Shown: piece by piece, positions 2,107 through 29,165 of the stretch | Layout of the letters: each line of letters begins with the position of its first letter | Position numbering within the stretch: position 1 is the first letter of the stretch | NCBI GenBank assembly: GCA_942492995.1 | Contig: OW818653.1 | Span: 1,230,001 to 1,262,000 of the forward strand | Direction of reading: 5' to 3' | DNA length: 32,000 bases | Origin: an uncultured Erysipelotrichaceae bacterium | GTDB lineage: Bacteria > Bacillota_I > Bacilli_A > Erysipelotrichales > Erysipelotrichaceae | The notes under the pieces: model-generated | What the model was told of the DNA's origin: nothing | Seen by the model: the letters and a program-made list of their open reading frames with translations, nothing else | Databases searched by the model: none | Position numbers and translations under genes: made by a program

Positions 2107-2754
2107 TTACACTTTCGTTCTTTTTATGTAATCTTCATCGACTTCTTTCTTCCAATCATCTTCAATACAATCATTCGTCCTGAAATCACTAATAACTTTA
2201 TTCATCGCTTGATAGTTCAAATTGGTCCCTTGGTCATCAGAGTGAAAGTTAACAGCTCGATTTGCGTCTATCCCAAAATTGTTTGCCACATCAATCGCAT
2301 CCATATTCGCACCCATAAAGATAAACTCCCAATGGTACTTCTTCTTCTGATGTTCGACCATTCGTTTAATCATTTTATAGTTATACTTCCGACTTGCGTT
2401 TTCCATCCCATCAGTCGTAATCACAAATAACACTTTATCGGATTGATGTTCCTTCAATGTCGCTTTCTGTACATTCACAATCTTTTCGATCGTCATCCCT
2501 ATCGCATCAAGTAGCGCAGTAGATCCACGTACATAGTATTCTTTTTCAGTTATATTAGCGATTGATTTTAAGTTTAATCGGTCATGTAATATTTCATACG
2601 CATGATCAAATAAGACTGTGGTGATTATTGCTTCACCCTCTTCTTCTCTTTGTTTATTCAATAGAGAATTAAACCCTTTTATCGTATCACTTTCAAGTCC
2701 AGCCATCGATCCACTTCGATCGAGTATAAATATACATTCAACTTTATTTGTCAT
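2107..2754 (-). CDS. Cytoplasmic von Willebrand factor A (vWA) domain protein with intact MIDAS
   Basis: 215 aa with no signal peptide or TM helix. MIDAS residues are visible: D12-R-S14-G-S16 (ILDRSGSMAG), Thr in RGSTALLDA, and Asp in ITTDGMEN. Confidence 0.85.
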   Translation of the reverse strand: MTNKVECIFILDRSGSMAGLESDTIKGFNSLLNKQREEEGEAIITTVLFDHAYEILHDRLNLKSIANITEKEYYVRGSTALLDAIGMTIEKIVNVQKATLKEHQSDKVLFVITTDGMENASRKYNYKMIKRMVEHQKKKYHWEFIFMGANMDAIDVANNFGIDANRAVNFHSDDQGTNLNYQAMNKVISDFRTNDCIEDDWKKEVDEDYIKRTKV

Positions 2755-2779
2755 AATTAATCTCTCTTTCTAATCCAAG

Positions 2780-2809
2780 TGTATAAAAAGTGAGATATGT
2801 TAAGGTCAA
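2780..2809 (-). promoter_or_regulatory. Candidate sigma-A promoter for the vWA gene
   Basis: The minus strand reads TTGACC-N18-TATACA in the 68-nt gap between the macro and vWA genes. A GAGAG-type RBS precedes the ATG at 2754. Confidence 0.4.
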
Positions 2810-2822
2810 CTGTCAGGCTACT

Positions 2823-3818
2823 TTATAATGTATTACATCCTAATAAATTTTGATCATATTCAAATAACACTTTATTAATTTCGAAAATATCGTAGATTTT
2901 CTGTTCAATGAAATACCTCACAATTAAATCGTGTTTAGAGCTGTTTGAAAGGCTAAATCCGGCTTTTTCGAGTAAGTTGGCACTTTCAACCAGTGATAAT
3001 CTTAAAGCTACACAGAAGGCTAAAACAGTAGATTTAGTTGGTCTGTAATCCACATGACTTCGTATCTTAGAGAAATGTGCTTTACTTATATTTGCACGTT
3101 TATACACATCTACATCTTTCATATTCTTTTGATCAATCAAATTCAATAATGATTCAGAAAACGATTTATCCAATTGAGTAAATATGTCATCCATCTTACT
3201 TAATGGAATAGAGTCCATTTCATCAAATTGACGACTAAATACTGTATTTGTTCTACTACTTTCAAGTCGAATATTGCTAATCGATTTCTCTACATAATTA
3301 TCATCGATATAGGATTTTATTGATAAAAATAGCTTAGAACTTATTTGGTACGCAACTTTATCATAAACAACTAAATACACCATCATTTCATGTTCAAACA
3401 AAAAAGTTTGTATCGTATGAATCGCAATTCTTAATGCGTCTTCTTTAGGATATCCATAATTACCAGAAGAAATAAGCGGAAACGCAATTGATTTCAAATC
3501 ATGATTCAATGCACATTCTAATGATTTTCTATAACAACTCTCAAGTTGTTTAGATTCATTATCTATTCCACCATTCCAAATTGGACCTACTGTATGAATA
3601 ATATGTTTCGCATTTAATTTAAATCCTGATGTTAATACAGCTTCGCCTGGTGCACAATACCCAATTTGTTTACACGCATCCGTTAATTCATTTATTCCAG
3701 CCAACTTAAAAATAGATTCGCTTGTTCCTCTTCCCATTTTTAACTTAGGGTTAGTTGGATGCACAATCGCATCTGTCATTAATCGTGTTATATCTTCGCG
3801 GATTATCTCGAATGGCAT
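2823..3818 (-). CDS. MacroD/YmdB-type macrodomain protein (ADP-ribose / O-acetyl-ADP-ribose hydrolase) with C-terminal XRE-like HTH
   Basis: 331 aa. Residues 1-170 carry macrodomain motifs: DAIVHPTN (the equivalent of the NAAN Asn) and ISSGNYGYPKEDA (the G-x-Y-G-Y-P loop). Residues ~225-290 (VYKRANISKAHFSKIRSHVDYRPTKSTVLAFCVALRLSLVESANLL) resemble an XRE-type helix-turn-helix. An extended -10 TGATATAAT lies at 3832-3840, only 13 nt before the ATG, and no clear SD is present. Confidence 0.8.
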   Translation of the reverse strand: MPFEIIREDITRLMTDAIVHPTNPKLKMGRGTSESIFKLAGINELTDACKQIGYCAPGEAVLTSGFKLNAKHIIHTVGPIWNGGIDNESKQLESCYRKSLECALNHDLKSIAFPLISSGNYGYPKEDALRIAIHTIQTFLFEHEMMVYLVVYDKVAYQISSKLFLSIKSYIDDNYVEKSISNIRLESSRTNTVFSRQFDEMDSIPLSKMDDIFTQLDKSFSESLLNLIDQKNMKDVDVYKRANISKAHFSKIRSHVDYRPTKSTVLAFCVALRLSLVESANLLEKAGFSLSNSSKHDLIVRYFIEQKIYDIFEINKVLFEYDQNLLGCNTL

Positions 3819-23091: not shown

Positions 23092-23115
23092 TAAAAAAGT
23101 GATCAGTTGACCACT
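23092..23115 (-). terminator. Rho-independent terminator after the cupin gene
   Basis: Minus-strand RNA: AGUGGUC-AACU-GAUCACU (7 bp, one G.U pair) followed by UUUUUAU, 12 nt after the stop codon. Confidence 0.65.
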
Positions 23116-23127
23116 CGTTATTAAAAA

Positions 23128-23475
23128 CTATTTATGTCCTTCAGTTGGGACGATACAAATGAACTTTAATACTGCATTCGATGTATTTTGAAACTGATGA
23201 AGTTCATTTCCTGGAACATACGCATATGAACCAGCTTGTATTGAATTCTCTTGTCCATTTAGAAACAATGTCCCATTCCCTTCCACAATATAATTGATAT
23301 GTGGCCATGGATGTTGGTGGCGTGGTGTAAATCCACCCGGTTCAAGTTCAAATACACGCATGACGTGATTATCCCAACCTTCGTTTGATCCAACCAATAC
23401 TTTCATTTTAGCCTTATCCGCTAATGGGTTTTGTACTACTTTATTCTCTAAATCGTTTACATGTCCAAGTGGCAT
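23128..23475 (-). CDS. Cupin-domain protein (metal-binding single-domain cupin)
   Basis: 115 aa. Cupin motif 1 is GGFTPRHQHPWPHINYIVEG and motif 2 is GSYAYVPGNELHQFQN. Confidence 0.85.
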   Translation of the reverse strand: MPLGHVNDLENKVVQNPLADKAKMKVLVGSNEGWDNHVMRVFELEPGGFTPRHQHPWPHINYIVEGNGTLFLNGQENSIQAGSYAYVPGNELHQFQNTSNAVLKFICIVPTEGHK

Positions 23476-23524
23476 AATGTTTACCTCAAATTAATACTTC
23501 ATATAATACCATAAAGCTATAATA

Positions 23525-24211
23525 CTATTCAGTAATTCGCTTTAATGCGTTTATGTTTTTTACGATAATCTTACGTTGTCCGATTAATTCGATAACTCCT
23601 TCATCTTGAAATGAGGTTAGTTTACGACTTAATGTTTCTTGACTCATCCCAATCGACGACGCAAAATCACCTTTCGTCATATTCAATGTAATCTCATTTC
23701 TTTGATTAACTAAATCAAGTAGTGCTAATGCTAAGCGTTGTTCAACTGTATTAAGATTTATTTTCTCAATCAATGATTCAGCTTGTTCTAAACGTTTACT
23801 TAAAACTTCCATAACTTTAAACGCAATGGATGGATACTTATTCATCAATTCTTTTAACTTATTTCCATCAATCATACACATAAGCGTTTTCTCAAGTACT
23901 TCCGCATTATCAGTTAATGGTGTATTACTTAATAGCGTTAATTCTCCCATAAATTCGCCAGGTTCGACGATGCGAAGAACTTGTTCCTTACCATTAATAT
24001 TTAATCGTGATATTTTAACTCGACCTGAATGCAGAACATACAGTTTGCCTCCCAAATCATTTGCCATGTAGACATATGATCCTTTATCAAACTTTGCCTC
24101 AGTTGTAATATTCGCAATTTCCAACATTTCTTCTTCTGTTAGATTACTGAAAATAGGAACGATTTCGATACAATTGGATGGATTCTCATCTTGGTGATGG
24201 TTACATGTCAT
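23525..24211 (-). CDS. Crp/Fnr-family transcriptional regulator, FNR-type recognition helix
   Basis: 228 aa. It has a cNMP-binding-like beta-roll (GEFMGEL) and a C-terminal HTH, GMSQETLSRKLTSF, carrying the E-x-x-S-R motif typical of the FNR/FixK branch. The N-terminus is MTCNHHQDENPSNC (Cys3, His5, His6, Cys14), and there is a Cys at position 112. Confidence 0.85.
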   Translation of the reverse strand: MTCNHHQDENPSNCIEIVPIFSNLTEEEMLEIANITTEAKFDKGSYVYMANDLGGKLYVLHSGRVKISRLNINGKEQVLRIVEPGEFMGELTLLSNTPLTDNAEVLEKTLMCMIDGNKLKELMNKYPSIAFKVMEVLSKRLEQAESLIEKINLNTVEQRLALALLDLVNQRNEITLNMTKGDFASSIGMSQETLSRKLTSFQDEGVIELIGQRKIIVKNINALKRITE

Positions 24212-24244
24212 AGTTATCTCCTGATATTATCATAACTGATTCGA

Positions 24245-26086
24245 TTACTTTTCTCTATATTTAAGCAATCCTACCGCATTTAATATAACTAAGAAGACGG
24301 ATAGTTCATGAATTAACATACCTAAGGATAAGTTAACTGTTTTGATTAAAACACCAGCTAATAGAAACCCTGCCACAAGTAGAGCAAATACGATATTTTG
24401 CGTCATATTTTGAACGGTCTTACGACTTAATCCAAACGCATAGATTAGTTTTTTAATCTGCGATGATAATAATATAACATCTGCCGTTTCCATCGCAACA
24501 TCCGCTCCAGCTTGTCCCATCGCTATTCCAATATCGGCACTTGCAAGAGCTGGCGCATCATTAACACCATCTCCAACCATTGCGACTAAACCATATTTAG
24601 TTTTAAGGTTATTTAGTACTTCGACTTTGTTTTCTGGGAGTAAATCTCCATAGAATTCATCAATTTGAAGTTGTTTCGCTATTGATTCTGCAGTTCTATG
24701 ATTATCCCCTGTTAACATAATGACATTAATATTCGCTTTATGAAGTTGTTTAATCAGTTCATGTGAATCATCACGTATCGCATCCGCAATCATGATTAAC
24801 GCAAGGATCTTTTTATCATTGCTTAAGAGTATAGTTGTATAGCCTTGTTCTTCTTCATGTTTAATCTCTTCTTCAATATCACGATAATCAATGTTTAAAC
24901 TCTTCAGTAAGTTTCGATTACCAATTCGATAATGTGTACCTAAATAATCAAATTGAATGCCTAATCCAGTCAAAATTTCGATGTTATCTATTTTCTCTGA
25001 TAAATCAATCTTTTCAGTTTGTGCTTTAAGAATTATCGCCTTACCTAATGGATGTTCAGAATACGATTCTCCAAGTGCCGCAATTTTTAGTGCGTCATGT
25101 TCAGATAGTTCAAATGTCTTAATTTTCTTAACTTCTGGTTTACCAATGGTTAATGTCCCAGTTTTATCAAACGCAACAGCTTTTATTTTACCTAATTTCT
25201 CAATTGATTCTCCACCCTTAAATAGAACTCCATAATTCGCACCATTCCCAATTCCAGCCACGATCGAAACAGGTGTAGATATAACAAGCGCTCCAGGACA
25301 TGCGATCACGATGATCGTAAGTGATAATTCAACATCACGTGTAATTAAGTACATCACAATGGAAAGTACGACAATTGATGGTGTATAGTAAGCTGAGAAT
25401 TTTTCGATAAACTTCTGTGTTTTTGCCTTACTATCCTGCGCATCTTCAACTAACTGTAAAATATGTGCAAATGTTGTATCATCCCCAATTTTTTGAGCTG
25501 AAATAACTAAATAACCTGATTCAATGGTTGTGCCAGAAAAAACTGAATCATTTAGTGATTTATATACAGGGAGTGATTCTCCAGTAATTGATGATTGATT
25601 CACATACGCATTCCCTTCAAGTACACTTCCATCAACAGAAATTTTCTCACCTGGTTTTACGATTACAGTATCATCTATCAATACATCATCTACTCCAATA
25701 ACAATTTCTTTTCCATCGCGTAGAACTGTTGCCTTTTTTGGCGCTAGATCAAGAAGTGCTTTAATGGAAGATCGTGTTTTTTCGATTGTACGTGACTCTA
25801 GATAATCACCTAGCATAAACAAGAACGTAACTGCCGCAGCTTCCCAATATTCACCAATTAAAACAGCCCCAATAACCGCGATGGTCACAAGGGCATCAAT
25901 TCCAATAATTTTATAGCGAATTGCACTAAATGCTTTCTTGAATATTGGTGTTCCAGCAATAACGGTTGTGACCAACATAAAGATATTCGCATATAAGCTT
26001 AAATCTTCAAATTGTCTGAGAATAAACGCAATCGAAATCGTTATTAGAGAACTTGTGATAATTTGTTTTTTAGTTAATTTAAACAT
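24245..26086 (-). CDS. P1B-type heavy-metal-translocating ATPase lacking an N-terminal metal-binding domain; atypical CPG transmembrane motif
   Basis: 613 aa. Signatures include TGES, DKTGTLT, SEHPLGKAI and GDGVNDAPAL. The TM metal site reads IACPGALVISTP where CPC or SPC would be expected. The last TM helix reads LIHELSVFLVILNA. No HMA domain is fused. Confidence 0.9.
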   Translation of the reverse strand: MFKLTKKQIITSSLITISIAFILRQFEDLSLYANIFMLVTTVIAGTPIFKKAFSAIRYKIIGIDALVTIAVIGAVLIGEYWEAAAVTFLFMLGDYLESRTIEKTRSSIKALLDLAPKKATVLRDGKEIVIGVDDVLIDDTVIVKPGEKISVDGSVLEGNAYVNQSSITGESLPVYKSLNDSVFSGTTIESGYLVISAQKIGDDTTFAHILQLVEDAQDSKAKTQKFIEKFSAYYTPSIVVLSIVMYLITRDVELSLTIIVIACPGALVISTPVSIVAGIGNGANYGVLFKGGESIEKLGKIKAVAFDKTGTLTIGKPEVKKIKTFELSEHDALKIAALGESYSEHPLGKAIILKAQTEKIDLSEKIDNIEILTGLGIQFDYLGTHYRIGNRNLLKSLNIDYRDIEEEIKHEEEQGYTTILLSNDKKILALIMIADAIRDDSHELIKQLHKANINVIMLTGDNHRTAESIAKQLQIDEFYGDLLPENKVEVLNNLKTKYGLVAMVGDGVNDAPALASADIGIAMGQAGADVAMETADVILLSSQIKKLIYAFGLSRKTVQNMTQNIVFALLVAGFLLAGVLIKTVNLSLGMLIHELSVFLVILNAVGLLKYREK

Positions 26087-26108
26087 AAATCCTCCTTTTC
26101 AAAATCAA

Positions 26109-26324
26109 TTACTTTTCGCTAATTACGTTATAACCTAATTGATGAATTTTCGCCTTTATAAGTGCAGAAGTTACTTGTTCTTCATTAAAACTTACTTTTA
26201 CTCGAGAAGAGTTAAATAACACTTCAGACGTTTCGATTCCTTCGGTTTGTTTTAACATTCCTTCAATTTTTTTAATACAACTTGGACAAGATACTGTTTC
26301 TAATTGATATGTTTTATTTTGCAT
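26109..26324 (-). CDS. Stand-alone heavy-metal-associated (HMA) domain metallochaperone
   Basis: I place the start at ATG 26324 (MQNKTYQLETVSCPSCIKKIEG...; AAGGAGA RBS 5 nt upstream), giving 71 aa. It has the CxxC motif in the usual HMA loop. Confidence 0.85.
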   Translation of the reverse strand: MQNKTYQLETVSCPSCIKKIEGMLKQTEGIETSEVLFNSSRVKVSFNEEQVTSALIKAKIHQLGYNVISEK

Positions 26325-26391
26325 AATGTTCTCCTTGTCGAACAATTTAATTGTTTGATATCTAAAGTATACTCATTTTAATAATAGATAC

Positions 26392-26407
26392 TTTGACCTA
26401 AGTCAAA
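26392..26407 (-). promoter_or_regulatory. FNR/FixK-type box TTTGAC-N4-GTCAAA upstream of the HMA-ATPase-Crp/Fnr-cupin operon
   Basis: Perfect inverted repeat TTTGACCTAAGTCAAA. On the minus strand its centre lies 28 nt upstream of a TATACT hexamer, which would place it near -40.5 or -41.5. A second perfect 6-1-6 inverted repeat, ACAATT-T-AATTGT, lies at 26342-26354 in the leader. Confidence 0.6.
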
Positions 26408-26462: not shown

Positions 26463-27407
26463 ATGCACAACCAAACAATCTCAAAAGCCTTCTCGATTCA
26501 AGGCACGACTCATAAGAAAGAATACTTTGAAGGCTGGTATTTCAAACAAGTTAATCTTAATCATGGTGTGACAATTAGTTTTATATTTGGCTATAGTACT
26601 AATACAATTAATCCTCATAGTTTCATTCAAATTATTCGTACTAATCCATTAAAAACATATTATATTAGTTATCCTTTAGATGATTTTATTTCAATCGATG
26701 ATGGGTATCAAATTGGTAGTACTTTTTTCTCAGTTAATGAACTCAAACTTAATATTGATACGGATGAGATTCGTTGTATCGGACATTTAAGTTTCAATAA
26801 TCATACTGAACTAAATGGAAGTAATTGGTATATGCCGACGATTATGGGGCCTTTTTCATATATTCCTAATATGGAATGTAATCATGGTGTTGTGAGTATG
26901 CATCATAGCGCAAATGGGACACTAAAATTAAATCATGAGTCATTTGAGTTTAAAGATGATATCGGATATATTGAAAAGGATTGGGGAACATCTTTCCCTA
27001 ATCGTTATATATGGCTTCAAGGCAATCATTTTACTGAACCTAATACTTCATTTATGTTAAGTGTTGCGAACATACCATTCTTAGGGTTGAATTTTGAAGG
27101 ATTAATCGCTTCATTAAATATAAATAATCGATCTTATCGTTTTGCGACATATACTGGCGCATTTAAACGTAAACTAACTAAAAATGATAATGGATTCGAA
27201 TTGATAATCCATCGTGGATTTTATAAACTAATCATTAATGTACATATTGATGAACAAGCTGATCTTGTTTCACCTCAGAATGGATTGATGATGAATACAA
27301 TCAAAGAAGGATTAGGCGGTAAAATTTCATTATCGTTGTATCATTTTAATAAATTGATTTGGACTGGATTATCCAATAATTGTGGAGTTGAGATTGAAGG
27401 ATATTAA
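26463..27407 (+). CDS. Tocopherol-cyclase-like family protein (function unknown in this context)
   Basis: 314 aa. The N-terminal ...KKEYFEGWYFKQV... matches the FEGWYFK motif I recall from the tocopherol cyclase (VTE1) family. No TM helix or signal peptide is visible. The assignment is from memory of one motif plus size. Confidence 0.45.
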   Translation: MHNQTISKAFSIQGTTHKKEYFEGWYFKQVNLNHGVTISFIFGYSTNTINPHSFIQIIRTNPLKTYYISYPLDDFISIDDGYQIGSTFFSVNELKLNIDTDEIRCIGHLSFNNHTELNGSNWYMPTIMGPFSYIPNMECNHGVVSMHHSANGTLKLNHESFEFKDDIGYIEKDWGTSFPNRYIWLQGNHFTEPNTSFMLSVANIPFLGLNFEGLIASLNINNRSYRFATYTGAFKRKLTKNDNGFELIIHRGFYKLIINVHIDEQADLVSPQNGLMMNTIKEGLGGKISLSLYHFNKLIWTGLSNNCGVEIEGY

Positions 27408-27440: not shown

Positions 27441-27977
27441 TTATTCAACTGTTAGAGCTCGTAAATGAATTTCATCGAGTTCTTTCGTTCCAAGAATTTT
27501 TTCACTTAGCCAAGCAATTCCTAAAATACCAAATATATTTAAACTAAATCGAGTAATTGTAAAGATAAGCCCCATCGAGGATGCTTCAAATAACAATAAT
27601 GGAATTTTGGTTGTGGACCATGCGCCTATAAGTATTAATACGTTTTTGAATGAACTTCCTTTTCGTAATAACGTTAACGCAACAGGAAATGCGGCATAGA
27701 GTGGTCCTGCAGCAGCAGATCCTAAGAAGAATGCTAACAACATCCCAACTGATCCGCTATCTTTGCCCATCATTTTGACCATCGTTTCGCGTTTAACCCA
27801 AACATCAAGTAATCCTAATAAAACGAATACAGGGGGTAAAACCATTATCATTTCTATGAAACTCGAATACGTCTTTTGTGTACTTGAATTAAATAATGCG
27901 TTATCAAAGAAATAGATAATTCCATAAATAACTAATAGTATAAACACTAATCTATATTTCTTAATGGTGTTCTTCAT
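27441..27977 (-). CDS. Half-size permease, subunit 2 of a split permease pair
   Basis: 178 aa with about 5 TM helices. It carries the motif GSAAAGPLYAAFPVALTLLRKG...TKIPLLLFE. It has an ATGA overlap with the upstream half. Confidence 0.65.
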   Translation of the reverse strand: MKNTIKKYRLVFILLVIYGIIYFFDNALFNSSTQKTYSSFIEMIMVLPPVFVLLGLLDVWVKRETMVKMMGKDSGSVGMLLAFFLGSAAAGPLYAAFPVALTLLRKGSSFKNVLILIGAWSTTKIPLLLFEASSMGLIFTITRFSLNIFGILGIAWLSEKILGTKELDEIHLRALTVE

Positions 27978-28450
27978 ACTAATATCACTCCTATAACAAG
28001 CGCTACAAGAAGTGAGAATAAGAATGCTAAACCATTTCTCAAATAAGCAGCTTTTTTGCCAAAATATTTAACTTCTAATGGTATTGTGACAATTCCAACC
28101 ATCATTAATGTAGAGATGAATGCGGCAATTTGCATATACCCCGCCCCATTTTTTAACAGTGCAGCCGATAATGGAAATGCGATAAAGCCTGGGATAAGCG
28201 TGATTGAACCAATTATTGACGCTATTAATACTCCAATCCATCCAGATTCACCACCAATGAATTTCGATATTTGAGTTGGATTAAGCACACTTAGCACAAC
28301 TCCTATTATGAGTAAAATACTTAAGAATTGAGGAAGGATGTTTTCAAATGATTTCCATGCTTTCTTTAGTGCTTGAACTGTTTTTCCTTTTGATTTATAC
28401 CATGAAATCCCAAGTGCAACCCCCGCAATGATATAGGCAATACTATCCAT
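27974..28450 (-). CDS. Half-size permease, subunit 1 of a split permease pair
   Basis: I place the start at ATG 28450 (MDSIAYIIAG...), giving 158 aa. The longer track ORF would run 66 nt into the upstream gene. It carries a motif paralogous to subunit 2: GSITLIPGFIAFPLSAALLKNG...VTIPLEVKY. Confidence 0.65.
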   Translation of the reverse strand: MDSIAYIIAGVALGISWYKSKGKTVQALKKAWKSFENILPQFLSILLIIGVVLSVLNPTQISKFIGGESGWIGVLIASIIGSITLIPGFIAFPLSAALLKNGAGYMQIAAFISTLMMVGIVTIPLEVKYFGKKAAYLRNGLAFLFSLLVALVIGVILV

Positions 28451-29165
28451 GATGATGTCCTTTATGATCATGTGAATGATTATGTGACCCACAACCTGAA
28501 CATTCATGTCCAACAAGTTCTTTATTTAACGTATTATTCAAATACGCTTCAAGTGCTTCATTAATATTCTTGTCTTCCGCATTGACACATTTAATGTTGA
28601 GAGCAATTAAACGATTATATGCACCTTTCCCCATCGTATTCATTATCAATACATCTACCCCAAGATCTTTAAGAAATTGTGGACGTTCTTGATGAACATG
28701 TACATCATCATGAATTTTTCTTTCACTAACTTTAACATTGTCTATTATTTCATAAATTATAAAGTCATTACATTGCCCAAAATGACCAGCAACTTTTTCA
28801 CCATCTACACCTATTGCGATTTTCATATTAACTTCTCCCTTTTCGTTTATGTTTAATGTATTCTCAAACATGTTATTTGAGTTGTAAGTAACATTACCAC
28901 CTTCAATTTCAAGTATTATTCCTCGTACGAGAGCTTCCGCGATTTTCATTCTTGCGCTTGCATAAATACGTTGTACAGTCGTTCTACTTATATTCATAGT
29001 AGAAGCACAGTTCTCTTGACTGAGTCGTTCAAAGTCACATTTACGTATAACATCGAATTCATCTAAACTTAATTTAATCTTTTCATGTGATTGTATTTTC
29101 TCAGGCACAAATTTACAACAAATCGGATTATCTCTAATATTTCTTTCTTTTACTGGTCTTGGCAT
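28443..29165 (-). CDS. DUF134 (UPF0251) HTH domain fused to a NifX/NifB-C-type cofactor-binding domain, with a His/Cys-rich tail
   Basis: 240 aa. The N-terminus, MPRPVKERNIRDNPICCKFVPE...LSQENCASTMNISRTTVQRIYASARMKIAEALVRGIILEIEGG, matches the DUF134 pattern. The middle section, MKIAIGVDGEKVAGHFGQCNDFIIYEI...VLIMNTMGKGAYNRL, matches the NifX/NafY/NifB-C family pattern (HFG motif). The tail GHECSGCGSHNHSHDHKGHHHG has 8 His and 2 Cys in 22 aa. Confidence 0.7.
   Translation of the reverse strand: MPRPVKERNIRDNPICCKFVPEKIQSHEKIKLSLDEFDVIRKCDFERLSQENCASTMNISRTTVQRIYASARMKIAEALVRGIILEIEGGNVTYNSNNMFENTLNINEKGEVNMKIAIGVDGEKVAGHFGQCNDFIIYEIIDNVKVSERKIHDDVHVHQERPQFLKDLGVDVLIMNTMGKGAYNRLIALNIKCVNAEDKNINEALEAYLNNTLNKELVGHECSGCGSHNHSHDHKGHHHG

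Follow-up and report, generated by a model that had tools for sequence, protein, structure and literature searches.

We analysed a 32,000-nucleotide (nt) stretch of the genome of an uncultured Erysipelotrichaceae bacterium (GenBank assembly GCA_942492995.1, contig OW818653.1, positions 1,230,001 to 1,262,000; referred to as the window herein). Within 23097-26407 of the window, four co-oriented genes on the minus strand encode, in this order, an HMA chaperone, a P1B-type ATPase, a Crp/Fnr regulator and a cupin. Our comparison suggests that this locus is probably a self-contained module of the FNR-like protein (FLP)/FlpA type, with redox-responsive positive autoregulation. The evidence consists of the gene content, a palindromic box upstream of the HMA gene, the uniqueness of this box in the genome together with its conservation and fixed geometry, two cysteines of the regulator, and the linkage of the regulator to the ATPase. 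The original prediction, made from the letters of the window, held that the operon is controlled by its own Crp/Fnr regulator through this box, and on the comparative evidence such control appears most likely. It had also called the arrangement uncommon, a view that we could not uphold, as an FlpA-type regulon already has an entry in a published catalogue (PMC3616900) and the arrangement recurs widely in Bacillota genomes and plasmids. The window locus is an ordinary member of a described, poorly understood FLP/FlpA system and not a new kind of regulation.

The box and its distance from the -10 hexamer are conserved across Bacillota

The promoter of the window was compared with 22 promoters from related loci (n = 23), which came from the same genus and family, Peptococcaceae, Clostridiaceae, Paenibacillus durus, 'Firmicutes bacterium FC7', Tissierella creatinini, Acholeplasma, two further Bacilli families, and plasmids of Enterococcus faecium and Carnobacterium. 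The palindrome TTGA(C/T)-N4-(G/A)TCAA was present in all 23 promoters, and a recognisable -35 in none of them. A TAnnnT hexamer begins exactly 22 nt after the box in 21/23, and in the window and L080 the spacing between the box and the -10 is 21 nt. The centre of the box precedes the -10 (counted from its first base) by 29.5 nt, which places it at about -41.5, the classical class II FNR position. In the window, where there is likewise no -35 hexamer, the box centre would probably lie near -40.5/-41.5 if TATACT is the -10.

The two closest relatives for which upstream sequence was available, L089 and L090, encode regulators that are 83% and 93% identical to that of the window. Both loci retain the box and TATACT, and neither retains TATTAT or the TATTAT/TATTAA stretch to which it belongs. 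Since the box and TATACT are kept and TATTAT is not, these data support activation by the regulator and do not support repression. The original prediction had offered both promoter readings. If TATACT is the -10, the box takes the class II activator position, a reading that agrees with the conservation of box, spacing and hexamer in close and distant relatives, whereas TATTAT as the -10, which implied repression, fails in L089 and L090. For repression, the regulator would have to occlude a promoter that uses the TTGACT half-site of the box (26406..26401) as its -35 and TATTAT or TATTAA as its -10. TTGACT would make a good -35 hexamer, with TATTAA following 17 nt further on, but the stretch containing this -10 is lost from both close relatives while TATACT at 21-22 nt is kept, the 22-nt spacing recurs in 21/23 promoters of distant taxa, and the mode given in the published FlpA entry is that of an activator (PMC3616900). 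We therefore consider repression very improbable.

Perfect TTGAC-N4-GTCAA sites occur twice in the 2.0-Mb genome (33% G+C), against 2.1 expected from base composition, so the number of boxes alone is not significant; it is position together with conservation that sets the operon box above chance. Of the perfect copies, only this box is intergenic, in a promoter position, with a chance expectation of ~1e-4 for a region of ~120 nt. The other perfect copy (G000 517201) lies inside the coding region of an ABC-ATPase and was dismissed as a chance occurrence. A relaxed scan of the genome (TTGAY-N4-RTCAA with at most one mismatch, outside open reading frames of at least 100 aa) returned 43 sites, but apart from the operon box no perfect intergenic match among them has a suitably placed -10-like hexamer. 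Two other perfect matches to the relaxed motif are not followed by a -10-like hexamer, and one of them was judged to fall within the coding sequence of a small heat-shock-like gene. We rejected a genome-wide regulon, as the scan gave no further perfect site with a correctly spaced -10.

Two invariant cysteines in a predicted FLP-type regulator

The regulator has the recognition helix SQETLSRKL (E192-T-L-S-R196) and the N-terminus MTCNHHQDENPSNC, and contains Cys3, His5, His6, Cys14 and Cys112. More than 1000 homologues were found at E <= 1e-10, with 60-70% identity still reached across classes of Bacillota. In an alignment of 19 diverse homologues, Cys14, Cys112 and the helix QETLSR are invariant, and Cys3, His5 and His6 differ between lineages. 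The commonest N-terminus among the homologues is M-x-C-x-C-H-x(6-8)-C and that of the window's genus is M-T-C-N-H-H; some N-termini, among them those of the plasmid forms, have histidines only, and some apparently begin MNC. The cysteines of the Acholeplasma orthologues (41-44% identical) are the two invariant ones only. The E-T-L-S-R helix and the palindrome were thus as originally read. The proposed set of three cysteines and two histidines is present as described, but as a set it is not conserved, with only Cys14 and Cys112 being invariant.

By BLASTP the regulator is 28% identical to Escherichia coli FNR (E = 2e-22), a comparison that serves as a lead. In this alignment, Cys14 falls on Cys29, Cys112 on Cys122 and His6 on Cys20. 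The two proteins share the fold, the family of DNA motif, the cysteine equivalents at 29 and 122, and a box near -41.5 in a class II promoter that lacks a -35. The window regulator differs from FNR in missing equivalents of Cys20 and Cys23, and in being a local, dedicated regulator with one genomic site where FNR is global. It also fails to reach the cut-off of any curated NCBIfam Crp/Fnr model, with 75 bits on Fnr (NF008365) against a cut-off of 228. With equivalents of Cys29 and Cys122 only, as judged from this alignment, and a score under the Fnr cut-off, the regulator falls outside FNR proper. Its architecture, two-cysteine pattern, E--SR helix and box (to which binding is predicted) and, apart from dps, its regulon content all agree with the FLP type of the Crp/Fnr family, to which it would therefore belong. 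A second Crp/Fnr paralogue, encoded elsewhere in this genome and not in the window (G000:C1:1960502-1961182; 27% identical), has an N-terminal C-x2-C-x4-C, which is nearer to the FNR cluster pattern.

The regulator is linked to a CPG-type pump

Among 399 genomes spread evenly over the same GTDB phylum, a regulator orthologue (E <= 1e-50) was found in 11. As only 3/6 sampled genomes of the window's own genus, the window genome included, have an orthologue, the HMA-ATPase-regulator unit is accessory. The orthologue is encoded directly downstream of a homologous ATPase in 9/10 genomes besides that of the window, which answers in the affirmative the question, raised with the original prediction, of whether orthologues keep the ATPase neighbourhood. 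In each of the eight loci that were extended (8/8), HMA-ATPase-regulator is preceded by a box just upstream of the HMA gene.

The window ATPase carries CPGALVI in its transport helix and GMLIHELS in its last helix. CPGALVI and GML(I/V)HExS at these places are common to all 17 ATPases examined (17/17, plasmid copies included), each of which is tied to an FLP-type regulator or its box. Because the CPG and HExS motifs occur in all 17 linked ATPases, a distinct CPG/HExS pump subclass appears to travel with the regulator. The corresponding motifs of PerR-controlled P1B-4 ATPases are SPC/HEGxT, as opposed to the CPG/HExS read here. A literature search for CPG-motif P1B-ATPases found no open paper.

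On the Enterococcus and Carnobacterium plasmids, a 34%-identical regulator is accompanied by dps, a hypothetical gene, lgt, an HMA gene and a pump of the same type. On these plasmids, dps and the genes for the regulator, the HMA protein and the pump each have in front of them a box that is followed after 22 nt by TATACT or TATAAT.

The genes that follow the box vary at some loci. In Paenibacillus durus (L031 2108-2839), a DUF6448 gene comes first after the box, before HMA-ATPase-regulator. A small RIC/hemerythrin-like protein, or an unassigned one of ~100 aa, is encoded between the box and the pump at L077 566-685, L007 ~2650-3100 (assessed from the first residues after a putative ATG only) and L049 1121-1423, and is absent from the window.

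Relation to FLP, FlpA and other known systems

The FlpA regulon, reconstructed for Lactococcus and 13 Lactobacillaceae genomes, comprises cadA (a heavy-metal ATPase), copZ, dps and flpA; its entry gives the Crp family, 'heavy metal resistance', the effector 'oxygen' and the mode 'activator', and refers to PMID 10760139 and 9534240 (Ravcheev et al. 2013, PMC3616900). As summarised in a further paper, Flp acquires on oxidation an intramolecular disulfide that enables it to bind DNA, and an L. lactis flpA flpB double mutant is hypersensitive to H2O2 (PMC7162690). Two cysteines at FNR positions 29 and 122, with the rest of the cluster motif gone, are described as the Gram-positive FLP pattern (PMC5039431). 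The primary work on FLP and FlpA (Gostick 1998, Gostick 1999, Scott 2000) enters here by way of the papers that cite it.

FlpA and FlpB of Lactococcus lactis and FLP of Lacticaseibacillus casei resemble the window regulator in that cysteines at the FNR Cys29 and Cys122 positions are the only conserved ones. FlpA and FLP also share its E--SR helix and a TTGA(C/T)-N4-(G/A)TCAA site at an activator position, and the FlpA regulon in RegPrecise has in common with the window a CopZ-like HMA protein, a 'cadA' P1B-ATPase and the regulator itself. In L. casei FLP, the conserved cysteines are Cys5 and Cys102. The lactococcal operons reportedly have the order orfX (HMA-like)-orfY (ATPase)-flp, which matches that of the window and is an arrangement that Gostick et al. 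are said to have described in 1999. The window differs from these systems in several respects. Its lineage adds the N-terminal Cys3, His5 and His6, a cupin gene follows the regulator gene and a divergent tocopherol-cyclase-like neighbour is conserved, its genome has no dps gene in the unit and none preceded by a box at another locus, and its host is an anaerobic Erysipelotrichaceae-like bacterium and not a lactic acid bacterium.

The PerR-controlled P1B-4 ATPases, ZosA/PfeT of Bacillus subtilis and streptococcal PmtA (PMC7012047), are alike in logic only. In these systems, too, an oxidative-stress regulator takes the place of a classical metal sensor in the control of a pump that has no fused metal-binding domain, but the regulator is the Fur-like repressor PerR, as opposed to a predicted Crp/Fnr activator in the window.

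Regulon partners and the nature of the signal

Many of the clostridial and Tissierella orthologues of the regulator adjoin a flavodiiron protein, a hemerythrin or a nitroreductase, and not a pump. In genome G003, a box with the 22-nt geometry is found before an unlinked CPG-type pump, before a regulator-hemerythrin-flavodiiron operon and before a RIC/ScdA gene. As these partners (flavodiiron protein, hemerythrin, RIC/ScdA, nitroreductase and Dps) are oxidative or nitrosative stress genes, the comparison would point to a redox, oxygen or nitric oxide (NO) signal rather than a metal. No box was found before the regulator-flavodiiron and regulator-nitroreductase pairs of Clostridiaceae, Dehalobacterium and Tissierella, so a stress-gene regulon is seen in one genome only, G003.

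Several Tissierella promoters of regulator, hemerythrin and flavodiiron genes have no FNR box and instead carry GTTT(a/t)-N12-15-GGGTA(T/A), which resembles SigB-type general-stress promoters (L010 3330-3575, L012 1380-1550, L019 6250-6385, L022 237-440 and 1658-1805). Also in G003, an identical 19-mer, GTTTGACCTACATCAATTC, containing an FNR-like box is found at L043 1501 and L058 2001. The two sites are unrelated and both are beside ABC-transporter ATPase genes, and the 19-mer may represent a repeated element and not a regulatory site.

Several points weigh against a redox-responsive FLP/FlpA-type module. The likeness to FLP and FlpA was judged from published descriptions of these proteins; no named Lactococcus or L. 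casei protein was among the results of the regulator homologue searches, and the L. lactis control genome gave no loci. The box-to-TATACT spacing in the window is 21 nt, as opposed to 22 nt at most loci. Most clostridial orthologues begin M-x-C-x-C-H and have four cysteines in all, which would fit an FNR-like iron-sulfur (Fe-S) cluster better than a plain disulfide switch, and FlpA may itself hold an oxygen-labile Fe-S cluster bound partly via non-cysteinyl ligands, according to a report cited in a Streptococcus suis paper (PMC5039431). Lastly, the steady linkage of the regulator to a pump and a chaperone, and the His-rich N-termini of some lineages, would be compatible with direct metal sensing.

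An FNR-style Fe-S sensor, labile to oxygen or NO, would use Cys3, His5 or His6, Cys14 and Cys112 as ligands and would be active only with an intact cluster, so that the operon would be on in anaerobiosis and off after exposure to oxygen or NO. In most homologues, M-x-C-x-C-H-x(6-8)-C and Cys112 supply four cysteines in FNR-like positions, the match of His6, Cys14 and Cys112 to FNR Cys20, Cys29 and Cys122 would fit such a site, and so does the FlpA cluster with partly non-cysteinyl ligands mentioned in PMC5039431. The N-terminal ligands vary, however, with two cysteines only in Acholeplasma, starts at MNC in some homologues and histidines only in the plasmid forms. Moreover, the partners Dps, flavodiiron protein and RIC are stress defences that would be expected to be induced, not shut off, by oxidants, and the score on the NCBIfam Fnr model falls short of its cut-off. 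We regard a sensor of this kind as unlikely.

In a Crp/Fnr metalloregulator, the N-terminal Cys/His residues with Cys14 and Cys112 would bind the metal of the pump and thereby switch DNA binding. Consistent with this mechanism, the regulator gene nearly always occurs together with those for an HMA protein and the special CPG/HExS ATPase, Cys/His- or His-rich N-termini are common (window, L062, L063, P0116), and the operon contains no gene for a classical metal sensor. Indeed, a domain search of the four operon genes and the divergent neighbour found no ArsR/SmtB, MerR, CsoR or CopY domain, in line with the original prediction of regulation without such a sensor; the nearest other regulator is a DUF134 protein that is part of a separate unit at 27441-29165. 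Nevertheless, the N-terminal segment varies strongly and is missing from the Acholeplasma orthologues, which keep the same operon and box, members of the same regulator family are encoded next to flavodiiron, hemerythrin and nitroreductase genes at loci that lack a nearby pump, and the published assignment, as given in the FlpA entry of PMC3616900 and in the summary of PMC7162690, is to oxygen or redox. Direct metal sensing thus seems quite improbable to us. We give equally little credence to the more specific proposal that the Cys-x-His-His of this lineage forms a metal site with Cys14 and Cys112, making the protein a metalloregulator or a dual redox/metal sensor for a CPG/HExS pump with a non-canonical substrate.

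For the redox-responsive FLP/FlpA-type module that we favour, we infer DNA binding, activation, the nature of the signal and the transported metal as follows. A dimer of the regulator would bind the one TTGAC-N4-GTCAA box, whose centre lies ~41 bp ahead of the transcription start, and from this class II position would activate a promoter that has the -10 TATACT and lacks a -35. The output would be the HMA chaperone, the CPG-type P1B-ATPase and the regulator's own gene, with the cupin reached by read-through, and would thus amount to positive autoregulation. The signal would most likely be redox or oxygen, sensed via Cys14 and Cys112, the presumed equivalents of FNR Cys29 and Cys122. By analogy, a disulfide switch as reported for L. 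casei FLP and L. lactis FlpA may serve as the model, with the lineage-variable N-terminal Cys/His segment acting as a modifier. The role of the pump under oxidative stress could, again by analogy, be to expel a metal that is redox-active or reacts with thiols, or else to import zinc, as has been proposed for L. lactis.

Features of the operon and its divergent neighbour

The gene order, the intergenic gaps of 22, 33 and 49 nt and the single terminator after the cupin gene, all part of the original prediction, were confirmed on the sequence (Table 1). The hairpin 3' of the cupin gene is the sole terminator-like hairpin in the four-gene unit. The HMA protein matches CopZ-like NCBIfam models at scores under their curated cut-offs. 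Its mechanically called open reading frame begins with TTG at 26345, and the ATG at 26324 lies six bases after an AAGGAG ribosome-binding site; the latter is likely the true start.

Table 1. Predicted features of the four-gene unit and its promoter (window coordinates)
Feature	Position	Strand	Basis or detail
FNR/FLP-type palindrome TTTGAC-TTAG-GTCAAA, 16 bp, TTTGACTTAGGTCAAA	26392..26407	.	core TTGAC-N4-GTCAA at 26393-26406
Predicted -10 TATACT	26371..26366	-	begins 21 nt after the 14-bp box core
HMA (CopZ-like) metallochaperone, CPSC metal-binding motif	26109..26324	-	Pfam HMA 1.7e-11
P1B-type ATPase, 613 aa, without a fused metal-binding domain	24245..26086	-	TIGR01525, 572 bits
Crp/Fnr regulator, 228 aa	23525..24211	-	Pfam cNMP_binding PF00027 8.1e-21 and HTH_Crp_2 PF13545 9.7e-18
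Candidate internal extended -10 promoter TGGTATTAT in the regulator-cupin gap	23503..23511	-	sequence reading
Single-domain cupin, 115 aa, final gene before the terminator	23128..23475	-	Pfam Cupin_2 7.6e-17
Intrinsic terminator ending the unit	23116..23097	-	8-bp stem, 3 G-C pairs, then T-run

Among the loci compared, only those of the closest relatives (L003, L089 and L090) have a cupin gene behind that of the regulator, and the cupin is a lineage-specific addition to the unit. In the 49-nt gap between the regulator and cupin genes, TATGGTATTAT is kept in L089 and L090 and the remainder of the gap diverges. Because the conserved candidate extended -10 TGGTATTAT lies in this gap, the cupin gene may own a promoter besides receiving read-through.

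A divergently transcribed tocopherol-cyclase-like gene occupies 26463-27407 (+) of the window and has counterparts at L089 1322-2266 and L090 1307-2251. This gene still adjoins the HMA-ATPase-regulator-cupin unit in relatives whose outer flanks differ, and the five genes seem to move together. Its probable -10 is a plus-strand TATACT that forms part of the conserved GAAGTATAAG and is separated from the box by 27-28 nt. Relative to this gene, the centre of the box would lie near -47, a non-standard activator position.

Implications for the FLP/FlpA family

FLP and FlpA have been known since 1998-2000 and are catalogued as a heavy-metal and oxygen regulon. The window locus is a clean minimal example of such a system, with one genomic box and with the regulator encoded inside its target operon, in an anaerobic gut-type bacterium. 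Our comparison adds a distance between the box and the -10 that is fixed across Bacillota, a CPG/HExS subclass of ATPase that is found with the regulator, and a regulator in which only two cysteines are universal. Together, the fixed geometry, the pump subclass and the two universal cysteines narrow the mechanistic options and make this locus a compact system for testing them.

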